NCBI GenBank assembly: GCA_918797485.1
Contig: CAKKNE010000004.1
Coordinates: 310,001-374,000, forward strand
DNA length: 64,000 bases
From: Pelagomonas calceolata
Lineage: Eukaryota
Direction of reading: 5' to 3'
Shown: positions 24,319 through 37,410 of the stretch, one piece after another
How positions within the stretch are numbered: the first letter of the stretch is position 1
Layout of the letters: each line of letters begins with the position of its first letter
Notes under the pieces: model-generated
Told to the model about the DNA's origin: nothing
Database searches by the model: none
The model's input: the letters and a program-made list of their open reading frames with translations, nothing else
Position numbers and translations under genes: made by a program

Positions 24319-27300
24319 TTACTTCTGATGCTCCTCGAGGAGCGCGACGATGGACGAGTGGCCTTTCTTCCGCGCGATGCCCAGTGGCGTTGTGCCCTTT
24401 TTGGTCACACAACTGGCATCCGCGCCTTTGTCCAGTAACAGCCGCGCCGCGTCGATGTGGCCGTTTTGGCAGGCGATGATCAGCGGCGTCCAGCCGTTCT
24501 CCGTCGCCCGGTCGACCTCCGCGCCTTTATCTAACAACAGCCGCGCCGCGTCGACGTGGCCCTTCTGGCAGGCGATATACAGCGGCGTCTCGCCGTCCTT
24601 ATTCGCCCGATCGACCTCCGCGCCGTTGTCCAGCAGCAGCCGCGCCGCGTCGACGCGGCCCCACTGACAGGCAATGTACAGCGGCGTCCGACCGTCCTCC
24701 GCCGGACGATCGACCTCCGCGCCCTTGTCCAGCAACAGCCGCACCGCGTCAACGTGGCCGTTCTGGCAAGCGACGAGCAGCGGCGTCGTACCATTCTCTG
24801 TCGCCCGATCGACCTCCGCGCCGTTGTCCAGCAGCATCCGCACCGCGTCGACGTGGCCCTGATGGCAGGCGATCAACAGCGGCGTGACACCCCCCTCATT
24901 TGCCCGATCGACCTCCGCGCCCTTGTCCAGCAACAGCCGCACCGCGTCAACGTGGCCGTTCAAGCAGGCGATGTACAGAGGCGTCGCGCCGTCCTTGTTC
25001 GCCCGGTCGACCTCCGCGCCTTTGTCCAGCAACATTTTCGCCAATTCGACGTGGCCGTTCGAGCAGGCGACGTATAGCGAAGTTGCGCCGTCATCCTTCG
25101 TCTGGTCGATCGCTGCGCCGTCGTCGAGGAGCCTCATCATTTCATCGACGTCGCCTGCCTTGGCGGTGGCGTGCAGAGGGTAAAGCTGCTCCTCGAGGAG
25201 CGCGACGATGGACGAGTGGCCTTTGCTTTTTGCGATGGACAGTGGCGTGTTCCCATTCTTCGTTGCCCGATTGACCTCCGCGCCTTTCTCCAGCAGCAGC
25301 CGCGCCGCGTCGATGTGGCCCTCCTGGCAGGCGACGAACAGCAGCGTTGTGCCGTCCCCCTCGTCCGCCCAGTCGACCTCCGCGCCGTTGTCCAGCAGCA
25401 GCCGCGCCGCGTCGATGTGGCCATAGTCGCAGGCGATGCATAGCGGCGTCCTGCCGTAATGGTCTGTCCGGTCGACCTCCGCGCCTTTATCCAGGAACAT
25501 CCGTGCCGCGTCGACGCGATCGTGCTCACACGCAATATGCAGAATCGTACGATCAATTTCGTTTGCACAATTCGGATCAGCGCCATGTTCCAGCAACAGC
25601 CGCGCCGCGTCGAAGCGCTCGTTTTCACACGCATCATACAGAATCGAACCACCCTCCCAATCTGGATCACCCTCTTCGTTCGTCCAATTTTGATCGGCGC
25701 CGTGCTCGAGACATAACTGCATCGCGTCGAGATTCCGGTTCCGATAAGCGAACAAAAACGGCGTCGTACAATCCAAGCACAAATCGACAGCTGCACCTCG
25801 CTCCACCAATAGCGTCGCGACGTCGAGGTGTCCGCGAGCACACGCAATCCCAAACGGCGACCAATCACCCTCACGCCTCTTATCGACCGCGGCACCCGCA
25901 TCGAGCAGCAAGCGCGCGGCGTCGACGTGCCCTTTCAAACTCGCTACAAACAGCGGCGTATAGTCGTCATCATCTTCCTGATCGACGTTATCACCCTGCT
26001 GAAGAAGAGCGCGCATCGCCTCAATGCCGCCTTGATAGCATGCGAGCGTGAGTGGCGTCGTGCCGCTCTCGACGCGCAATTCCCCCCACCGCTTCCCAAA
26101 AGAGACAAAGAATCCGCTCATGTCGCTCCTGACAGCCAAGGTCTTAATCTCATCATCAAAAGGAATCACCCGCAGCGCCGCACCGCCCTTGCTCGCGTCC
26201 CACACCTGCAAAGTCTTGTCCTTCGACCCGCTCACGAGCCGCATCTCGCCCGTCGCCGGATCCGCGAAGGCCGTCAGCGCGTTCACGTCATAATTCGTGT
26301 GTCCCTTGAGCACGAACAGCGGCGAGGCAACCCTGGTCTCGTCTTCGTCCGAGGCCTCCTCGTCCTCGTCCTCCTCAGCGGCATCGGACTCCTCGGCCGC
26401 GCCGCCCGCGGCTAAGTCCCAGATCCGCACGAAACCGTCCCTATCTCCGCTCGCGAGGCAAAGTCCGCCCGTCGCCGAGTCTTTGAAAACAGTCAAAGCC
26501 AGCACCCAGTCCGTATATGCGCAGTCAAGTACGGCCAATGCCCAGCCGCCCGCAACCGGGTCGTATATGCGCACCTCTCTGCTACAACCACAAGCAATTC
26601 GCAGCGCACCCGTCGCCGGGTCCGCGAAGGTCGCCAGCGCCGTCACGGAGCCAACGTCGATCACGACCAGCGCTTCCCCACCAGCGACCGGGTCAAAGAC
26701 GCCCACCTTCTCGTCATAACAATCACAAACGAGCCGCGGCGCGCCCGTCGCAGGATCCGTGAAGACTTCCAGCGCGCCAGCGCGCACGTCGATCACGACC
26801 AGCGCCTCGCCTCCCGCGACCGCGTCGAAGACAAGCACCTTTCCCGACGCGCATGCAAGCCGCGGCGCGCCAGTCGCCGGGTCCGTGAAGAACGCCAGCG
26901 CAGAAGCCCCCTCTTTAATCACGAGCAACACATCGCCAGTCTCCGTGTCCCACACGCGAATATCATTCGACCCGGTCGCGACCCGCAGCGCGCCCGTCGC
27001 CGGATCCACAAAGGTCACCAGGGCGCTCACGTCGTCAGAGTGCCCCTCGGGCTCCGCCTCGATCGCCGCGCCGCTCGCCGCCGGGTTCCAGACTTGGAGG
27101 GCAGAATACGAGTACCTGCTCACGATCCGCGGCTCGCCCGTCGCCGGGTCCGTGAAGGCTGCCAAGGAATTCACCCAGTGATATTGCCCCTCAAGCACGA
27201 CCAGCGCCTCGCCGCCCGCGACGGGGTCGAAGACGCGCACCTTTTTGTCGTCTGCACAGCTCGCGAGCCGCGGAGCGCCCGTCGCCAGGTCCTTGAATGC

Positions 27301-30300
27301 GACCAGCGCATTCACCACTTCGTCGCCTGCGTCGCACTCGAGCAGCGCATCGCCGCCAGAAACCGCGTCAAAGATAGACACCCCCCTCCAAGAACCACAC
27401 GCGAGCCTCGGCGCGCCCGTCGCTGGTTCCTTGAAAATCACCAGCGCACTCACTCTACCGCCCACGAACAGCGCAGAACTAATATCTAGCACGAACAGCG
27501 CGTCGCCGCCCACGACCGGGTCGAAGACAAACACCTTATTTCCCGACGCGCACGCAAGCCGCAGCGCTTCGTTGTCCTCGGCATGCGAGTTCTCGTCGTC
27601 GTCGTCCTCGTCGTCGCCGTTGTCTTCGTACTCCTCCTCTTCCTCTTCGCACTCCTCCTCTTCCTCTTCGCATTCCTCCTCTTCCTCTTCGCACTCCTCC
27701 TCTTCCTCTTCCTCTTCCGCGGTCGGGGCCGCGAAGACCACCAGCACGTTAGCGTCCACGTCGATCACGACCAGCGCCTCGCCACCAGCGACCGGGTCGA
27801 AGACAAGCACCTTCCCAGCAACTTCATCACCGTCCTCATCAAGCCCCCCCGTGCCGCACGCGAGCCGCGGCGCGCCCGTCGCCGGATCCTCAAATACGAC
27901 CAGCGCTTTCACCTCACCACCCACATCGATCACGAGCAGTGCCTCGCCGCCGGCGACCGGGTCGAAGACGCGCACTTTTCCGTCCTCACATCCACAAGCC
28001 AGACGCAACTCGCCCGTCGCCGGGTCTTTGAAGACCGCCAGCGCGTAGACCTCGTCGCCGGCATCAATCACGACCAACGCCGCGCCACCCGCAACCGGAT
28101 CATAGATGCACACCTCGCTTCTAGACTCACAAGCAACCCGCGGCTCGCCCGTCGCCGGATCCACGAACATCGCCAAGCTCCTAACATCAGATCCGACCTC
28201 GATCCGACACCGCTCCGCCCCACCCGCCGCGGTCAGGCCCATCGGCCACACGGTCGAGAGCGGCAGCTTGCTCGCAGCACGCTTTGCGTCCTCGGCCAGG
28301 CGTTGTGCAGCTGGAGACGACTCCGCATCGGCGCGCGGCATCAGCCGCTGCCACAACTGCTCTATGAGAGGCACTCCCCGTGATAGCAGGTTCCGCGACA
28401 ACACCAAGGAGTCGGTCAGCAGCAGTGTATCCTGGCCCTTCAGAGCACGCAAGTCCGCCACGAAGGAAACGATGTCGCCAGCGCTCCGCTTCCGCACGTA
28501 CGACAGACTGCAGGCGATCGCGACGGCCTCGCTCTCGTTATTCGACCGCTCCATGTGAAACAAACACCACCGCAACGCATAAGCATCCGACGCCACGCCA
28601 CCGTCGCCCTCCACGAACGATGCGAGCACCTCATCTGCGGCCGCGTCGCTCGAATACGACTTTGTATCCAGAACACCAGCACGAATAGCTTGAGCACAAG
28701 CCCGCGCCATTCGCCGGTGCGCCGCGTCCCGCGAGACGAAGAACGCGTCCTCAGAAGAACGCTTATCGAACGGCGCCTCGCCGGTTAGCCAATCCGTTAC
28801 GGTCTTATGTAATACACCGATCACGTCGCCCTCGCGCAGCGGGAACAGCAGCGACACTTCCGCGCAGAGACGCTCGCAGCGATCCCGATCCCAGCCGAGC
28901 GCCCCGCTCGCAGCGTCAATCGTCAACGGCTCTGCAGCAACGCAGATTAATTCAATGAGCGGCAGCGCATCGCCCCACGCGTCATCATCGACAAACACGC
29001 GTCGAAAGTTCTCCGCGTAGATCTCGTCGAGGCCCGCCGGCAGCGCGCCGACGCTCGCAAAGTCGATCTTGCCCGTCGTGGACGCGAGCTGCTCGGCAAT
29101 CAGGCGCGCGTAGAGCATCAGTCCTCCGGCCTTTCGTTCGAGCGAGGTTACAGCCGCGTCGAGCGCCGACGAGTTGAGGCGCTCGGCGATGAACGTCTCA
29201 AGCTCAGTCGCCTTGACGCTCGTGCCCTCGCACATCTTCGGTAGCGCCAGTCTAATGACTTCGTACTGCTCGTGGGCAATGTGCTTCGCGTCCAGGACGC
29301 TCTTTAAATGCAGCTGGACCTCGGCGAGATGTTTTCGGCCGTCGTCGAGGCGCACGCTGACGTTCAAATTCATGTCGCGGTAGCCGAGGGGCGTCGGGCT
29401 CGCGAACTTGTTTTTTAATTGCGCGATCTCCAGCCCGAGGCCGCCGCCGTCCAATTCAGTCAACACCTTAAGTAGGTCAGTAGCGCTCTCGAACACGACC
29501 GTCGCACGGGCTAGATCCCGGAATTTCTCGGGATGTGGCACACCATTGTCGGTGTATTTGTCCGCGAGCTTGCGCTCCGCAGATTCACGCCCTTTGACGC
29601 CTGGGTCCGCCACGTCGCCCGGCAGCGTCTTCAGCGCGTCGACCAAAATTGTCTGCGCCAGTGATGCGTCGGCATAGAGCTTGTCGAAGTCAGTCTCATC
29701 TTGTATCAAGTCGAGACGTCGCTCTTCATACTTCTCGAGCTCGCGGATCCCAGGAACGCCGCGGACCGCCTCGTCGTACGCGCCCTTTGACCGGCGCAGC
29801 GGATCCTCAAGATCCGCGAACGTGTCGAGATTCTTCAAGCCCGGGAACTTCGCCTCAACCTCGTGCCGCAGCGAGTCCATGGTTACCTCGAGCTCGACGT
29901 GCTCCTTCGCGAGCACCGTCAGGTACGCGCGAACGTCCTGCCGGTTCCGCGCCTCGTCGACGCGCAGCTCCGACGGCGTAAAGCACGAGAGCCTCGCTTT
30001 AATTTGAGCTTCGTCGCGGCTTGTCACGACAAGTTTGATCCACGGCGGCAGCGTCTTGAGCTCGTTCGCGAGCAGAGAGAGCACGGGCTGCAAAGCGTCG
30101 CGCGGTAGCTCATCGAGCGCGTCGACAATTAATACGAGAGCGTCGTCCGCGCCGCGCGGCGCCTCGACGTTTTGCAGCGGTTTTGCTACTAAAGCCTCGA
30201 AGAGCTCGTCGACCTTGTCCGTCGCGTTGTCGCTGCCGCCGCCCTCGCGCAGGGCGTCTTCGAAACCCTCGACCGTTGCGCAAAGCATGCCGGCTAGCGA

Positions 30301-30945
30301 CCGCAGCAGCGCCATTGGCGCGGACCGCGCCGGCTCGGTGTGCTTGCAGAAGTGCCACGCCGCGACGTTTTCTTTGTCGAGCAGTCGCGCCAACAACTCG
30401 GCCGCCGCGACACTCTTGCCCGTGCCACCACCGCCGACGAGCCAGAAGAGCTTCGCCGCTTCCGGGTCCGTGCGCCAGCGCATGACCGCCTCGAAGACCC
30501 ATTCGCGCGTCCCAGTTAGGTGCTGCCCGCGTTTCTCGGCAATTATGGCCGAAAGATCCAGCGCCTCCGCCACGCCGGAGCGGTCGACGCCGTGGAGCTT
30601 TTTGTAGAGCTGCTCCGAAATGCCTGCCCTTTGAGCACGCTCGACGGCCGCCGCCCGCGCCTTCGCGTGCGCGATCCAGCCCACCTTCGCGACGCCCTTC
30701 TTCCAGCGCGCTATCGCGGTGGCGGACTTCTTCTTCCTCTCGTCCGGCGGCCCCGCGCCCTTGCTCGCCGGGCCGTCCGCATTTGCCTTGGCCTCCGTCC
30801 AGCACCGCACCGCATCGTCCCTGGAGATCTTGGCCTCGGCGTCCGCGAATTTCTCCTCCCACGCGGGCTGCCACTCGGTGCCCGCCAGCTCTTTTGCCTC
30901 GGCAAGTGAGACCTCCGCCGGGAGAGATGATACACCGCCGCCCAT
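24319..30945 (-). CDS. NLR-like STAND protein: myristoylation motif, NACHT with inserted RelA/SpoT-like NTase, WD40 array, ankyrin arrays (2208 aa)
   Basis: MGGGVS; GTREWVF, Walker A GGGGTGKS, HFC, Walker B LIVDALDE, VVTSR, AGGLMLYA, LPAGLDEIY, LHKTVTDWL; FxDPATGxxR WD40-like repeats; TPLYIAC..GH ankyrins. Confidence 0.9.
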   Translation of the reverse strand: MGGGVSSLPAEVSLAEAKELAGTEWQPAWEEKFADAEAKISRDDAVRCWTEAKANADGPASKGAGPPDERKKKSATAIARWKKGVAKVGWIAHAKARAAAVERAQRAGISEQLYKKLHGVDRSGVAEALDLSAIIAEKRGQHLTGTREWVFEAVMRWRTDPEAAKLFWLVGGGGTGKSVAAAELLARLLDKENVAAWHFCKHTEPARSAPMALLRSLAGMLCATVEGFEDALREGGGSDNATDKVDELFEALVAKPLQNVEAPRGADDALVLIVDALDELPRDALQPVLSLLANELKTLPPWIKLVVTSRDEAQIKARLSCFTPSELRVDEARNRQDVRAYLTVLAKEHVELEVTMDSLRHEVEAKFPGLKNLDTFADLEDPLRRSKGAYDEAVRGVPGIRELEKYEERRLDLIQDETDFDKLYADASLAQTILVDALKTLPGDVADPGVKGRESAERKLADKYTDNGVPHPEKFRDLARATVVFESATDLLKVLTELDGGGLGLEIAQLKNKFASPTPLGYRDMNLNVSVRLDDGRKHLAEVQLHLKSVLDAKHIAHEQYEVIRLALPKMCEGTSVKATELETFIAERLNSSALDAAVTSLERKAGGLMLYARLIAEQLASTTGKIDFASVGALPAGLDEIYAENFRRVFVDDDAWGDALPLIELICVAAEPLTIDAASGALGWDRDRCERLCAEVSLLFPLREGDVIGVLHKTVTDWLTGEAPFDKRSSEDAFFVSRDAAHRRMARACAQAIRAGVLDTKSYSSDAAADEVLASFVEGDGGVASDAYALRWCLFHMERSNNESEAVAIACSLSYVRKRSAGDIVSFVADLRALKGQDTLLLTDSLVLSRNLLSRGVPLIEQLWQRLMPRADAESSPAAQRLAEDAKRAASKLPLSTVWPMGLTAAGGAERCRIEVGSDVRSLAMFVDPATGEPRVACESRSEVCIYDPVAGGAALVVIDAGDEVYALAVFKDPATGELRLACGCEDGKVRVFDPVAGGEALLVIDVGGEVKALVVFEDPATGAPRLACGTGGLDEDGDEVAGKVLVFDPVAGGEALVVIDVDANVLVVFAAPTAEEEEEEEECEEEEEECEEEEEECEEEEEEYEDNGDDEDDDDENSHAEDNEALRLACASGNKVFVFDPVVGGDALFVLDISSALFVGGRVSALVIFKEPATGAPRLACGSWRGVSIFDAVSGGDALLECDAGDEVVNALVAFKDLATGAPRLASCADDKKVRVFDPVAGGEALVVLEGQYHWVNSLAAFTDPATGEPRIVSRYSYSALQVWNPAASGAAIEAEPEGHSDDVSALVTFVDPATGALRVATGSNDIRVWDTETGDVLLVIKEGASALAFFTDPATGAPRLACASGKVLVFDAVAGGEALVVIDVRAGALEVFTDPATGAPRLVCDCYDEKVGVFDPVAGGEALVVIDVGSVTALATFADPATGALRIACGCSREVRIYDPVAGGWALAVLDCAYTDWVLALTVFKDSATGGLCLASGDRDGFVRIWDLAAGGAAEESDAAEEDEDEEASDEDETRVASPLFVLKGHTNYDVNALTAFADPATGEMRLVSGSKDKTLQVWDASKGGAALRVIPFDDEIKTLAVRSDMSGFFVSFGKRWGELRVESGTTPLTLACYQGGIEAMRALLQQGDNVDQEDDDDYTPLFVASLKGHVDAARLLLDAGAAVDKRREGDWSPFGIACARGHLDVATLLVERGAAVDLCLDCTTPFLFAYRNRNLDAMQLCLEHGADQNWTNEEGDPDWEGGSILYDACENERFDAARLLLEHGADPNCANEIDRTILHIACEHDRVDAARMFLDKGAEVDRTDHYGRTPLCIACDYGHIDAARLLLDNGAEVDWADEGDGTTLLFVACQEGHIDAARLLLEKGAEVNRATKNGNTPLSIAKSKGHSSIVALLEEQLYPLHATAKAGDVDEMMRLLDDGAAIDQTKDDGATSLYVACSNGHVELAKMLLDKGAEVDRANKDGATPLYIACLNGHVDAVRLLLDKGAEVDRANEGGVTPLLIACHQGHVDAVRMLLDNGAEVDRATENGTTPLLVACQNGHVDAVRLLLDKGAEVDRPAEDGRTPLYIACQWGRVDAARLLLDNGAEVDRANKDGETPLYIACQKGHVDAARLLLDKGAEVDRATENGWTPLIIACQNGHIDAARLLLDKGADASCVTKKGTTPLGIARKKGHSSIVALLEEHQK
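24329..26060 (-). repeat. Ankyrin-coding tandem array (99-nt units, high DNA identity)
   Basis: Recurrent TCGACCTCCGCGCC...CAGCCGC...GTGGCC at 99-nt spacing; 38-nt exact duplicate at 24329-24366 and 25187-25224. Confidence 0.9.
26100..28210 (-). repeat. WD40-like coding tandem array with conserved DNA units
   Basis: Repeated FxDPATGAPRLAC...VFDPVAGGEALVVID, DNA core CGCCCGTCGCCGG. Confidence 0.85.
27630..27710. repeat. 21-nt coding minisatellite, (EEEEEEC)n
   Basis: ACTCCTCCTCTTCCTCTTCGC, about 4 copies. Confidence 0.9.
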
Positions 30946-31223
30946 TTTCTTCCGCCTTCCCGGGGCTGCCCTACTGAGGCACAGAGATTGATACTCTCGT
31001 AATGTCGCGCCTCCTAGCGCCTGGACCCGCGCCTGGACCCGACCCCAGTGTCACCCCAATCTCCAATCCTAACCCGCACTGGAGGACCCAGAAGGAGATT
31101 CCTCCCGAGGGGCAGGGTTGGGCACGACGAAGCGTGCCTGGAAGAAACAGACAAAAAACCCGTTTTCGAGTTAAGAGCGCGCGGCGCGCGCGGGCCGCGA
31201 GACGCTGCCCGCACGGCTGCCCC

Positions 31224-32687
31224 ATGGCCTCCCTCGTCCAGCGCCGCGACAAGCGCACCGACATCAATAACCGACGGCAGTACCTCCAGCTGTTTGCCTG
31301 CCAAAGGGCCGCACCGCTGTACCGATGGTGGTACGCATTGGCCATTGATACGAAGCACGACCTCCTGAAGAGCTGGGGCATTCCCGTGCGGCCGATCAAC
31401 GCGCCGAACCCCCGATTCCCATCTCATTTCCACGTCGACGAGCTGCTGAAAGCGGACGACCAAGCACCAGTCACGCAGCCACCCCTGTATGCACCCTTGG
31501 ACGGTGTTTTAAGGACCTTCGCCATCGTCGCCGACCCGCTGACACGGTGGGCGCCGCGCGTCTCCGATGAGAGCGTCGACTGGTTGGACACTCTGACGGC
31601 GATCTGCGAAGCATTGGCAGACGAATACGTCGAGCGAACTTTGGACGATGGGGCCTCGCCGGTTATGTTGAGTGAGAAGGTGTCTGAGCGAGTGAGGGAG
31701 CACTGGCTGCCGGAGAGCTGGGACCGCGCGAAATTGCAGAAACGTTTTTTTCCGGACGAGACATTGTCGGACGTCGCCTGTCCGGCGTCGCGGTCGCTGC
31801 GAAAACACCGAGACGCGTTGTGTCTGGCCCACCGGAAGGATTCTGTAAGGGCCCTGGAGCAGGCCCTTGCTCTTGGTCTATGTGAGGACGATGAGGATCG
31901 TAGCATGGTCGCTGCCGCGCTGGCGTTGCTCGCCGATAGCGTCGCCTGGACGTCGCAGGGCTTCCTGACGGAGCGCGAGGCCAGGGCCGTGGCTGCCGCG
32001 GGCGAGAAGGTCTACGAGCGACTCGCGTCGTATTCGGCGCATTGCCGGCCGCACCAGTTGTTGTTCCTGAAGGCGCTATGTCTGCTCCAGAAACAAACCG
32101 CGAACGTCGCGGAGACCTTCGGCGACTTTTTCGTGCTGGCCGACGACGAGGCGCAGATGTTGCATCGGACGTACGCGTCGGACGACCGGCGTGCCCAGGA
32201 CCGCGGCGCAACCATATTGGTTGCGGTCGCGCGGGCGCACGTGGCATTTGGAATAGCGAAGGGCGACGAGGACGGCGGCGTCGAGCGCGCTTTAGGGATG
32301 CGGGACTGGGAAATTGATGTGGGTTGCGGGTGGCACGCGCGGCGCGGGTTGCGGCGGTTCCGGAGGGGTGACGACGAGGGGGCGTTGCGGGACCTGGACC
32401 GGGCCCTGTGCGGCCTGTCGCCCGACGACGCGGAGTTCGCGGCGTGCTGCGCCATTCTGGCAATTCTGATGAAGCGCGCGGGCGACGAGGGGCGGGGCGC
32501 GCGCTACTTGGAAGTCGCGAAAAATGGCGGTGCGTGTCCGGAGCTGGAACTGGCGCGGGAGGCCTTCGGCGAGGCTTCTGCTGCCGATGCGGAACCGGAC
32601 GGCGTGACGCGCATCGTCGGGTCGCGCGTGCCCAAGGTCCTGCGGACGCCGCGTGTGGATGATCTCGTCGACGAGGCGCGGGAGTAG
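31224..32687 (+). CDS. Hypothetical helical protein with a C-terminal TPR-like motif
   Basis: RRGLRRFRRGDDEGALRDLDRAL is TPR-like; divergent from the NLR gene. Confidence 0.6.
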   Translation: MASLVQRRDKRTDINNRRQYLQLFACQRAAPLYRWWYALAIDTKHDLLKSWGIPVRPINAPNPRFPSHFHVDELLKADDQAPVTQPPLYAPLDGVLRTFAIVADPLTRWAPRVSDESVDWLDTLTAICEALADEYVERTLDDGASPVMLSEKVSERVREHWLPESWDRAKLQKRFFPDETLSDVACPASRSLRKHRDALCLAHRKDSVRALEQALALGLCEDDEDRSMVAAALALLADSVAWTSQGFLTEREARAVAAAGEKVYERLASYSAHCRPHQLLFLKALCLLQKQTANVAETFGDFFVLADDEAQMLHRTYASDDRRAQDRGATILVAVARAHVAFGIAKGDEDGGVERALGMRDWEIDVGCGWHARRGLRRFRRGDDEGALRDLDRALCGLSPDDAEFAACCAILAILMKRAGDEGRGARYLEVAKNGGACPELELAREAFGEASAADAEPDGVTRIVGSRVPKVLRTPRVDDLVDEARE

Positions 32688-35586: not shown

Positions 35587-37410
35587 TTAGTCAAAAAGCG
35601 TCGTCGACGTCGACCGCACGCCCGCGCGCACGCCCCCAACCACATCTTGACCAGCGTGGGCCACGCCGCCGACGACGGAACCGACCCCACCGACCACCCC
35701 GCCCGCGAAGGCCCGGCCCGCCTCGCCGAGCTGGCCCACGTCGCCCGACGTCGCTCCTTGGACCAATGCGCGACCAGCAGCTAAAGACCCGCCGACGACG
35801 GCCGTCCCACCCCCGACCACGCCCCCGACCGTCGACCGCACGCCCCCCGTCACGCCCGTGACCACACGAGAACCGCCAAATCTCTCAGCAACGCGGTCCG
35901 CCACGTCCAGCGGCGCGAACACGAGACCCGTCACCGCCGACGCCGCCCCACTAAACGCCGCGTCCATGACGTCGAATCCAACGTTCGCCACGGCGCGCAC
36001 GGCCAGGCCCTGGATCCAGGCGAACGTTTGAATGCGGGACTTGAAGTTTTTTTCTAAATCAGCCGTCTCATCTCGTAATTGTATGGTCCCGAGGTGCCTC
36101 GCCCCAAAGGGCGACCGCGCGACGAGTCGTACCGCTAAATTCCGGAAGTGGACGCCGCGGTAGACGAGCGACCGGGGCTTCGTCGAGGGAGGCGGCTCGT
36201 CCTCGTCGAACTCTTCCTCGGCCTCGCCCCGGAACCTCTTCAAGTTCGTGTCCCTAAACCTAGCGTCGTAGGTCGCGTAGCAGAGCGTGAGGCCCGTGAC
36301 CTCGGCGGAGATCTCGGCCCGCAGCCGCCTGGATTTACCGACGCGCCGCACGATTATCGAGACCACGATCGTCTCCAGAGCCAGCAACGGGTCCTTCTGT
36401 TCCTCGTCGTCGTCCTCGTCGTCGGAGTCGTCGTCGAGCAGCGCCGGGTCTTCGTAGACGATGTCTGTCAAAGTGATCTGCAGGGCCGCGCCGCGGACGG
36501 CCAGGTCCAACGTCGGCGGCCGCCTTAAAGGCATTTTGCGCGTCGCCAGCCGCACGAGCGCGCGCCGGAAGACGTAGGCGTTGACGAGGATCAGGAGAAG
36601 GGGCAGGAGGACGTAGCGCAGGACGGCGAGCAAGATCTGCGGTCGCATGACGACGACGCACGAGACCAACACGACGACCAGCGCGCCTCCACTAGAGCCG
36701 CCCCGCACGTCGCGCGCCTCGTCGACGGGCGCCCAGATCCGCGCCACGTCCTGACGAGAAGCGCCGCGCCGCGCCGCACTTAAACAAGCGAGCCACCGCT
36801 CGGCGTCGCCCTCGGCCAAACCCTTGAAGCGCACGTCGTTGACCACGAACGTGTCGTCGTTCTCACCAGGAGCGATCGTGGCGTTTCTCACGTCGACGCG
36901 GCCGCCCGGCCGCTTCTGATTGTCGGCGTCGGACCACTCGAGGCGCCAGCGGTGGCCGCGCGCCGCCGTCCACGCGTCGCTCCGCAACTCGGCGCTCCGC
37001 CGGTTCCAGAGCCCGTGCTGCCCTTGCTTGAGCAGAATACCGTGGACGGCCGGCGCCGGGCGCGGCGGCGGCCGCGCGGCGCCGCTCGCCCGGGCCACGT
37101 CGCGCAGCCAGCGCCGCTTCTCTCGGGCCGTGTCGCAGCGGAAGACGTGGTCGTCGATGCAGAACGTGTGGCGGCCGGGCTCGTCGACGTCTTCGAGCTT
37201 TGCGTCGGTCAGATCTAATCTCTCGGCGCCTATACTGAGCCGGCCTCTCCGTAACACTGCGCGCCGCCGAACCCACCTCCACCGGTTCCGCTTCAGCAGG
37301 AGGCCGGCTAAGATTGGCTCGGAGGGCTCGTCGGGGCTCCGATCTCCTCCGCAGTCGCAGAACATGGTCGTTCGTTCGCCGCAGCAGACTGTCGTGCAGC
37401 AGTCGAGCAT
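35587..37410 (-). CDS. Protein with two PH-like domains, TM segments and a Gly-rich C-terminus
   Basis: AGLLLKRNRWRWVRR...EKRRWLRDV and HGILLKQGQHGLWNRR...AERWLACL; hydrophobic stretch in the middle. Confidence 0.7.
   Translation of the reverse strand: MLDCCTTVCCGERTTMFCDCGGDRSPDEPSEPILAGLLLKRNRWRWVRRRAVLRRGRLSIGAERLDLTDAKLEDVDEPGRHTFCIDDHVFRCDTAREKRRWLRDVARASGAARPPPRPAPAVHGILLKQGQHGLWNRRSAELRSDAWTAARGHRWRLEWSDADNQKRPGGRVDVRNATIAPGENDDTFVVNDVRFKGLAEGDAERWLACLSAARRGASRQDVARIWAPVDEARDVRGGSSGGALVVVLVSCVVVMRPQILLAVLRYVLLPLLLILVNAYVFRRALVRLATRKMPLRRPPTLDLAVRGAALQITLTDIVYEDPALLDDDSDDEDDDEEQKDPLLALETIVVSIIVRRVGKSRRLRAEISAEVTGLTLCYATYDARFRDTNLKRFRGEAEEEFDEDEPPPSTKPRSLVYRGVHFRNLAVRLVARSPFGARHLGTIQLRDETADLEKNFKSRIQTFAWIQGLAVRAVANVGFDVMDAAFSGAASAVTGLVFAPLDVADRVAERFGGSRVVTGVTGGVRSTVGGVVGGGTAVVGGSLAAGRALVQGATSGDVGQLGEAGRAFAGGVVGGVGSVVGGVAHAGQDVVGGVRAGVRSTSTTLFD

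Follow-up and report, generated by a model that had tools for sequence, protein, structure and literature searches.

Within a 64,000-nucleotide stretch of the Pelagomonas calceolata genome (the window; contig CAKKNE010000004.1, positions 310,001 to 374,000), the minus strand carries a single open reading frame (ORF) for a 2208-aa protein, P0001, of which NCBI, UniRef and nr contain identical copies. The protein joins a NACHT nucleotide-binding module to a WD40 propeller and ankyrin repeats, and a predicted alarmone synthetase domain sits inside the NACHT module (Table 1). The original prediction, made from the DNA letters, had read the gene as a receptor resembling NLRs (receptors that combine nucleotide binding with leucine-rich repeats), with a RelA/SpoT-type nucleotidyltransferase inserted at this point. 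Every motif it quoted was located in the ORF, in order and in a single frame.

The interrupted NACHT gene and its transcription

Pfam assigned P0001 to NPHP3_N (PF24883; residues 145-310, E 6.8e-24) and NACHT (PF05729; 167-319, E 1.8e-6), together with WD40 and ankyrin families. It found nothing in residues 340-610, and the insert alone matched 0 families. As in other NACHT STAND proteins, the nucleotide-binding domain (NBD) has a Walker A motif, a DxxDE Walker B motif and sensor-1, and is followed by helical domain 1 (HD1; here interrupted), a winged-helix domain (WHD) and HD2. A family profile matched the WHD-HD2-WD40 part of Apaf-1 (421-950, E 1.3e-21). Since the C-terminal repeats are WD40 and ankyrin, with no leucine-rich repeats (LRRs), P0001 is by its sequence NLR-like and not an NLR in the strict sense. 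A terminal effector is expected of NLR-like receptors, but the sole enzyme domain detected in P0001 is internal; residues 1-110 matched 0 Pfam families at E<=0.1. The MGGGVS start fits the MGxxxS myristoylation consensus, a putative modification; an MG start occurs in 10/13 listed proteins and MGxxxS in 8/13.

Poly(A) reads from three runs, all of one sample, covered every bin of the ORF on one strand, the sense strand, opposite to both neighbouring plus-strand genes. Across the insert region (28800-30600, 30 bins, at least 98% identity), run X24 covered 30/30 bins with 92 reads on one strand at a depth of 0.75-17.5; X22 covered 27 and X23 20 of the bins. No splice joint fell within 29130-30450 in these runs, at a depth low enough to allow a minor spliced form, and splicing-out of the insert was not seen. 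A joint that 4-5 reads place at 28857-28958 (ends TT..TG) is not within the insert and probably arises from a paralogue. The reads support a single, unspliced gene, and the outcome that the original prediction had named as fatal to it, a segment removed from the transcript or belonging to a separate gene, was not what the reads revealed.

Table 1. Features of the P0001 gene in window coordinates, counted from the first letter of the window
Feature	Position	Strand	Basis
Whole gene, 2208-aa ORF P0001	24319..30945	-	ORF; database copies; sense poly(A) reads in all bins
MGGGVS start	30928..30945	-	Motif location
N-terminal region, residues 7-134, without recognisable effector domain	30544..30927	-	No Pfam match in 1-110
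NACHT nucleotide-binding domain: Walker A, Walker B, sensor-1, first HD1 helix	29899..30543	-	PF24883, PF05729; model matches MalT, Avs3, Apaf-1
GGGGTGKS (Walker A)	30435-30412	-	Motif location
LIVDALDE (Walker B)	30132-30109	-	Motif location
VVTSR (sensor-1)	30030-30016	-	Motif location
NRQDVRAYL (first HD1 helix)	29946-29920	-	Motif location
Insert, ~240 aa (residues ~350-590): long flanking helices and synthetase domain, predicted loop-out of HD1	29176..29898	-	Boundaries +/- about 15 aa
Synthetase core, RelV/Tas1(Apk1)/EAS branch by sequence; K451, K459, D477, R480, K511, Y522, N526, E542, Q544, H558	29230..29700	-	
VKGRESAERK	29598-29569	-	Motif location
RDLARAT	29520-29500	-	Motif location
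GYRDMNLNV	29385-29359	-	Motif location
EVQLHL	29322-29305	-	Motif location
HEQY	29274-29263	-	Motif location
Remaining HD1 (AGGLMLYA) and winged-helix domain (LPAGLDEIY, LHKTVTDWL)	28666..29175	-	Motifs, structure model
AGGLMLYA	29130-29107	-	Motif location
LPAGLDEIY	29043-29017	-	Motif location
HD2-like helical region	28204..28665	-	Family profile vs Apaf-1; PF17908 APAF1_C in Prymnesium relatives
WD40-type beta-propeller, 12 D/E-x-ATG blade motifs, acidic low-complexity loops	26086..28203	-	PF00400 E 5.8e-20
Ankyrin repeats	24322..26073	-	Pfam; repeat comparison

Fold, position and enzyme branch of the insert

Searched against PDB as a single sequence, the insert gave weak matches to Tas1 (E 0.012) and YwaC (E 0.017). 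A profile of 11 relatives, which took in one phage-type sequence, matched Tas1 at E 2.9e-13 and YwaC at E 1.4e-9, and alarmone synthetases made up 10/11 of its matches. A Prymnesium-type relative with the same NACHT insert, searched by itself, matched YwaC (1.7e-5) and Tas1 (1.3e-4). An AlphaFold2 (AF2) model of residues 372-590 (pLDDT 89.1, pTM 0.81) predicts a synthetase domain of ~220 aa that folds alone. In a VIA search of 48,161 chains the top 11 rows were all synthetases of the RelA/SpoT homologue (RSH) family (Z 13.9 to 8.1), the next, unrelated row standing at Z 7.1. YwaC, RelP, RelQ and Tas1 tied at the top (YwaC, Z 13.9, rmsd 4.0, 152 aligned residues; Tas1, Z 13.4, rmsd 4.0, 153 aligned). 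Foldseek (E 4e-7) agreed, each of the 26 rows shown being an RSH-family structure. These matches agree with the fold that the original prediction had proposed, and the insert is predicted to have a RelA/SpoT synthetase (Pol-beta-like alpha/beta) fold.

Family databases do not name the domain. The window's insert did not reach the PF04607 gathering score; its relatives matched with E values from 2.8e-6 to 1e-3, and wherever a bit score was given it lay below the 27-bit cut-off, as it did for RelV-type proteins of Photobacterium. NCBIfam gave just sub-threshold XopAD/PRK09169 C-terminal matches to the insert, and PADLOC matched the ankyrins of P0001 and nothing else. The ESM Atlas returned one match of 0.93 to an unnamed cluster and others below 0.9, one of them to a cluster with RelA_SpoT in 34% of members.

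CapRel, described as a phage-triggered defence protein in the available text of PMC11782079, was also a close fold match (Z 12.3). P0001 might then be a switch-controlled translation toxin that pyrophosphorylates the CCA end of tRNA, like CapRel and FaRel2. We regard this as very unlikely, as the sequence matches are Tas1, YwaC, SaEAS and RelV-type proteins and neither CapRel nor FaRel2 is among the 11 profile matches. CapRel, which is invader-triggered, resembles P0001 in joining a sensor and an RSH-fold toxin in one chain, but it has no STAND module, acts on tRNA and lies in another toxSAS branch by sequence than the insert.

The position of the insert was modelled in residues 120-830 (711 aa; pLDDT 78.5, pTM 0.53). 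The model runs from the NRQDVRAYL helix through further helices to the synthetase core, then through a long helix to the helices around AGGLMLYA. In structure alignments, reported as end points, model residues 3-516 match Avs3 chain residues 245-502 (244 residues, rmsd 3.2, Z 15.3), 18-521 match Cdc6 11-275 (232 residues, rmsd 3.7) and 299-471 match Tas1. Because such short spans of Avs3 and Cdc6 align across so much of the model, the prediction is that the NBD and the helices after the insert together make up an ordinary NBD-HD1 unit from which about 240-250 residues are looped out. This supports the claimed position within the NACHT helical domain. The extent originally given (core 29250-29700, ~250 aa) is refined to a core at about 29230-29700 and an insert at about 29176-29898 (~240 aa). 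Which of the flanking helices is native HD1 is ambiguous by about 15 aa, and an NBD-only scan found, among its 7 loci, no insert-free close NACHT relative with the NBD joined directly to the WHD; the exact boundaries stay imprecise for that reason.

The motif parallels to RelA/SpoT drawn by the original prediction stood in part: the synthetase motifs occur in order, but RxK lacks its R, and GYRDxN stands in place of GYxSxH. Judged by sequence, both departures are traits of the RelV/Tas1 branch and not decay. The insert is nearer to RelV and Tas1 than to RelP, RelQ or Rel, and it shares with RelV and EAS proteins the string QxxxDFxxLYxxAxxAQ, GvKs/g, DLARAT, KNxFxxP, GYRDxN, EVQLHL and HxxYE. 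On these sequence traits it belongs to the RelV/Tas1(Apk1)/EAS branch, of pyrophosphokinase (alarmone synthetase) type; Tas1 is filed with RelV in the available text of PMC7591505. The term "RelA/SpoT-type nucleotidyltransferase" therefore holds as to an RSH synthetase but not as to a canonical RelA/SpoT enzyme or a nucleotidyltransferase in general.

The nearest bacterial relatives found are stand-alone proteins. A search of plasmid collections identified a Photobacterium protein with a signal-peptide-like start and 35% identity to the insert over 180 aa. Its Vibrio relatives are mostly 257 aa long with the catalytic E at 186, as in VpEAS (257 aa, E186), and the Apk1 homologues in the supplement of PMC12691689, as far as available, include Vibrio entries with the same motif string. 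Some RelV-like proteins in that supplement are named phosphoribosylglycinamide formyltransferase by UniProt, which looks like misannotation. Two tandem, unannotated RelV-like genes were seen at L009:2366-4198, on a Photobacterium replicon of 2.1 Mb that is catalogued as a plasmid. Across 401 proteobacterial genomes there were 11 matches in 10 genomes, all to the insert and all in stand-alone frames of 257-282 aa, at 34-43% identity (the highest spanning about 150 aa). Phage-type relatives are 23-36% identical to the insert. Searches of phages (50,697 records, and IMG/VR), plasmids (72,556 records) and the 401 proteobacterial genomes yielded matches to the insert alone and no NACHT-flanked copy, other bacterial phyla not having been searched genome by genome. 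In a tree of 29 domains that leaves out Tas1 and SaEAS, the NACHT inserts (with P0065) group at 86/95; the RelV-like domains form a group at 88/99, and a further group (93/85) consists of six rows, most of them phage-type.

Phage-type proteins of the synthetase branch comprise P0058, P0061, P0062, L008:1539-3146, P0064, P0017 and positions 36157-36501 of Bordetella phage vB_BbrM_PHB04. One phage-type protein also has MuF, ADP-ribosyltransferase-like and topoisomerase IB domains.

Conservation, distribution and related architectures

The residues R480, N526, E542 and Q544 align with R330, N370, E382 and Q of Tas1 as named in PMC12691689, whose numbering we matched by a derived offset of 21. D477 aligns with D121 of SaEAS and E542 with E186 of VpEAS, which are the sites of active-site mutants (E186A in VpEAS) in the available text of that paper. 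Of the residues expected in an RSH synthetase, the insert thus has the catalytic D (D477), R, E and Q of the donor site (R480, E542, Q544), the K..K of the basic helix (K451, K459) and the Y of the G-loop (Y522). Among 23 long NBD-insert-WHD proteins, many of them close kin and all found through the insert, K451, K459, D477, R480, K511, Y522 and N526 are kept in 23/23, and E542, Q544 and H558 in 22/23; Walker A and Walker B are intact in 23/23. A wider profile search gave 7,934 representatives, each standing for a separate cluster at 50% identity. NACHT flanks occur in 29 of the best 150 (both sides in 13, the NBD side in 8, the WHD side in 8), and the other 121, many of them fragments or other proteins, have none. 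In the 29, D is kept in 28/29, R and K511 in 29/29, Y in 26/28, N in 27/28, E in 27/27 and Q in 25/26. Pairwise dN/dS among six DNA copies was 0.13-0.73 for the core (below 0.5 in 14/15 pairs) and 0.10-0.26 for the NBD. On this comparison of sequences the insert is under purifying selection, and with its catalytic set kept, the synthetase domain looks alive.

The same layout is found in Pelagomonas calceolata, source of the nearest named relatives of P0001, in Prymnesium parvum (five named loci) and in Triparma laevis, with the insert at one fixed position in all three algal groups. Recurrence across pelagophytes, which the original prediction had suggested looking for, was thus found and extends beyond them. 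Of the seven loci of the NBD-only scan, five have the insert, one diverges after residue ~370 and one ends too early. Databases label members of the family just NACHT, WD40, ankyrin or hypothetical proteins.

That the insert is an artefact (of mis-assembly or contamination, or an exon removed by splicing) or the relic of a dead insertion is already largely refuted, and we give this reading next to no weight. The missing Pfam match of the window's insert and the broken state of some relatives would suit this reading, but they stand against a continuous ORF, sense reads over both junctions, purifying selection and the same layout in three algal genera. The share of G and C at third codon positions is 0.76 in the insert, within the 0.71-0.84 of the rest of the gene. 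One relative, L002, also has a GC-AG intron-like stretch inside the domain (62 nt at L002:4031-4092, between IAQ and LKNKF). The window copy has no intron at the counterpart, 29410-29430; several database proteins stop at this site, and P0057 and P0063 look like one gene split there.

Pelagophyte-type copies are dispersed paralogues with 5-12 blade motifs and 0-14 ankyrin motifs. In P0001 the final six ankyrin repeats are 74-84% identical in DNA, in a fixed frame and with few variable positions; an acidic tandem stretch (EEEEEEEEC repeats) lies in a propeller loop at 27580-27720. The copies have two insert types, split at 100/100, which NBD and WHD trees do not resolve. Between types, identity is about 62% in the insert, 84-89% in the NBD and 82-90% in HD1/WHD, and dS is higher in the insert (1.1) than in its flanks (0.64 and 0.40). 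This contrast, seen in the sequences, fits cassette exchange or homogenisation of the flanks.

The greater divergence of the insert would also suit an integrated decoy, a synthetase-like domain that baits pathogen inhibitors or hydrolase partners and trips the NACHT switch, the output lying elsewhere. In several Prymnesium-type proteins (P0011, P0012, P0014, P0072-P0074) ubiquitin-like and EEP/nocturnin-like domains precede NACHT, as seen for P0011 and P0012, and for a decoy the latter could supply the effector. It could also be a second effector beside the synthetase, or a phosphatase balancing it. We consider a decoy improbable, given the near-invariant catalytic residues of the 29 NACHT-flanked representatives, the single fixed insert position in three algal groups and the lack of any other recognisable effector in the window's protein.

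Some stalked synthetases lack an NBD (P0116, P0133, P0176, P0187, P0188, P0227, P0231); some have HD1-like flanks, and EF-hands, an E2 domain or BspA LRRs occur among them. From their sequences they are possibly a mobile cassette, and those with EF-hands possibly calcium-gated, non-plastid alarmone synthetases. A scan of 21 of the 121 non-NACHT representatives found EF-hand fusions in 4/21 and an E2 domain in 1/21. These fusions favour a synthetase switched for second-messenger signalling outside immunity, related to nutrients, calcium or the plastid, in which the repeats bind a host partner, as do transcription in all three poly(A) runs and the (p)ppGpp made by the nearest bacterial relatives. 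We nevertheless think this unlikely: the family is multi-copy and variable in repeat number and repeat positions, two deep insert types sit on a NACHT background that the trees leave undivided, and descriptions of STAND-enzyme fusions in fungi and bacteria present them as defence proteins.

More divergent synthetase-like domains occur in large WD40/LRR proteins, P0065, P0066 and P0068; in the last, from Aureococcus anophagefferens, the first motif seems to be missing.

Head to head with the NACHT gene, on the plus strand at 30978-32687, lies an expressed gene whose protein has only a weak TPR match and no match at seven related loci (L001-L007). Across these loci no DNA match extends outside the gene, so no conserved partner gene was found, and neither Pfam on the neighbours nor comparison with the seven loci recognised an immunity gene beside it.

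Putative function and relation to known systems

Coupling of RelA_SpoT to NACHT is already known. In fungal NLRs, according to the available text of PMC4986451 (Dyrka 2014) and PMC12258605 (a Sordariales survey), RelA_SpoT is an N-terminal effector, in line with the expectation that fungal effectors are normally N-terminal. These proteins resemble P0001 in their NPHP3_N-type NACHT, WD40 or ankyrin repeats, high-identity repeats and an RSH domain as proposed effector. Their domain is detected by PF04607, whereas that of P0001 is RelV/Tas1-like, falls below the PF04607 threshold and lies inside the NACHT module, the N-terminus being a short MG-start region and the hosts algae. In bacteria, alarmone synthetases are listed among NACHT effectors at the extreme N- or C-terminus (10.1101/2022.07.19.500537). 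Bacterial NACHT/Avs STAND proteins share with P0001 the sensor-NACHT-enzyme logic, and Avs3 matches its NBD-HD1 model; however, transmembrane regions are the only insertions mentioned in the available text of that preprint, and P0001 carries an enzyme there.

The enzymes of the branch itself act outside NACHT proteins. Vibrio RelV/VpEAS and Streptomyces SaEAS share the motif string of the insert but are described as stand-alone, exported proteins with a signal peptide (PMC12691689, available text), whereas the domain of P0001 is embedded in 2208 aa with no signal peptide at the start. Tas1/Apk1 (PDB 6OX6), the best PDB sequence match of the profile and a tied top fold match whose active-site residues align with the insert, is an adenine-specific interbacterial toxin, delivered by injection and kept in check by an immunity protein; for P0001 no immunity gene was recognised. 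With its enzyme internal to a NACHT protein and no export signal, delivery domain or adjacent immunity gene found, P0001 is not an EAS or toxSAS system, although its insert may work like the RelV/Tas1/EAS enzymes. The available text of PMC3153485 reports divergent small alarmone synthetases in fungi, amoebae and diatoms and does not mention NACHT; the supplements of PMC12691689 contain no Pelagomonas, Aureococcus, Emiliania, Prymnesium, Triparma or NACHT. A literature search, with most subscription papers outside its reach, returned no paper describing an HD1-internal RelV-type domain in algae. The new part is thus the internal position, the RelV/Tas1-type branch and the algal hosts.

The product of an active insert would depend on the acceptor. 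VpEAS makes pppGpp (G-specific), SaEAS both products and Apk1 (p)ppApp (PMC12691689, available text). (p)ppApp was our first reading, from the best PDB match Tas1 and the shared N370. It was then lowered because RelV-type G-specific enzymes are at least as close and share that N. We lean towards a guanine acceptor, since the nearest bacterial relatives found are RelV/VpEAS-type, up to 43% identical and with the E186 of VpEAS. If the domain is active, (p)ppGpp has an even chance, (p)ppApp is a weaker candidate, both together would be unlikely and a tRNA or other target more unlikely still. The sequence does not allow the product to be read, because members of the branch make G, A or both products and the tree does not place the insert among them.

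STAND receptors sense through their repeats; when ADP is exchanged for ATP, the WHD-HD2-sensor part swings open from NBD-HD1, whose units assemble into a ring. For P0001, whose activity, trigger and immune role are all putative, we tentatively propose a widespread algal NLR-like family in which a RelV/Tas1-type enzyme from bacterial toxin systems sits in HD1 as an exchangeable cassette kept up among paralogues, and in which resistosome-type activation would yield (p)ppGpp or (p)ppApp outside the plastid and abort infection. Myristoylation may tether the protein to the membrane, and the variable WD40 and ankyrin repeats would sense a ligand; an NLR-like sensor side is suggested because paralogues differ in their numbers of blades and ankyrins, and near-identical ankyrin repeats vary at few positions. 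The resting state would hold the enzyme off, by occlusion or by strain on its stalk, as RelV/EAS/Apk1 enzymes are toxic in the cytoplasm and the neighbourhood offers no recognised immunity gene. Ligand on the repeats would then drive nucleotide exchange and oligomerisation, and HD1 would move and switch the enzyme on, because STAND activation separates WHD-HD2-sensor from NBD-HD1 and would reposition an enzyme on HD1. The alarmone, likely (p)ppGpp and less likely (p)ppApp, would be made in the cytosol, where it could drain GTP and ATP or act as a signal, and the invaded cell would be arrested or killed. VpEAS, SaEAS and RelV without signal peptides inhibit bacterial growth (PMC12691689, available text).

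Several points weigh against this proposal. The pTM of the whole model (0.53) leaves it unsure how the insert is placed against the NBD, RNA depth is low even in the best run, and the three runs of raw reads are one sample. Some relatives are broken or diverged (L002 has a frameshift; L004 leaves the family after residue ~370). The stalked domain also occurs without NACHT, beside EF-hands, an E2 domain, LRRs or ankyrins, and may serve general signalling. The branch joining the algal group to its sister, RelV-like or phage-type, has a support of 73/42 in a tree without Tas1 and SaEAS. A residue separating G from A acceptors was looked for and none found; N stands at Apk1 N370 in both the A-specific Tas1 and the RelV-type GYRDLN, and SaEAS makes both products. 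Weighing these together, we find it somewhat more probable than the opposite that the defence output is a cytosolic alarmone synthetase under the control of the STAND switch, as the sequences suggest.

Eukaryotic (p)ppGpp synthesis has so far been described mainly for plastid RSH enzymes. The family, which named algae in culture carry, is easy to miss, because its domain falls below the Pfam threshold and databases name just the NACHT, WD40 and ankyrin parts or a hypothetical protein. An enzyme on HD1, and not at a terminus, is a different wiring of the STAND switch to its effector. If the proposal is true, algae of blooms and of the open ocean have an alarmone synthetase that is gated by a switch and works outside the plastid. 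The innate immunity of eukaryotes would then gain a nucleotide output, and the enzyme would be a concrete candidate for how phytoplankton abort infection.

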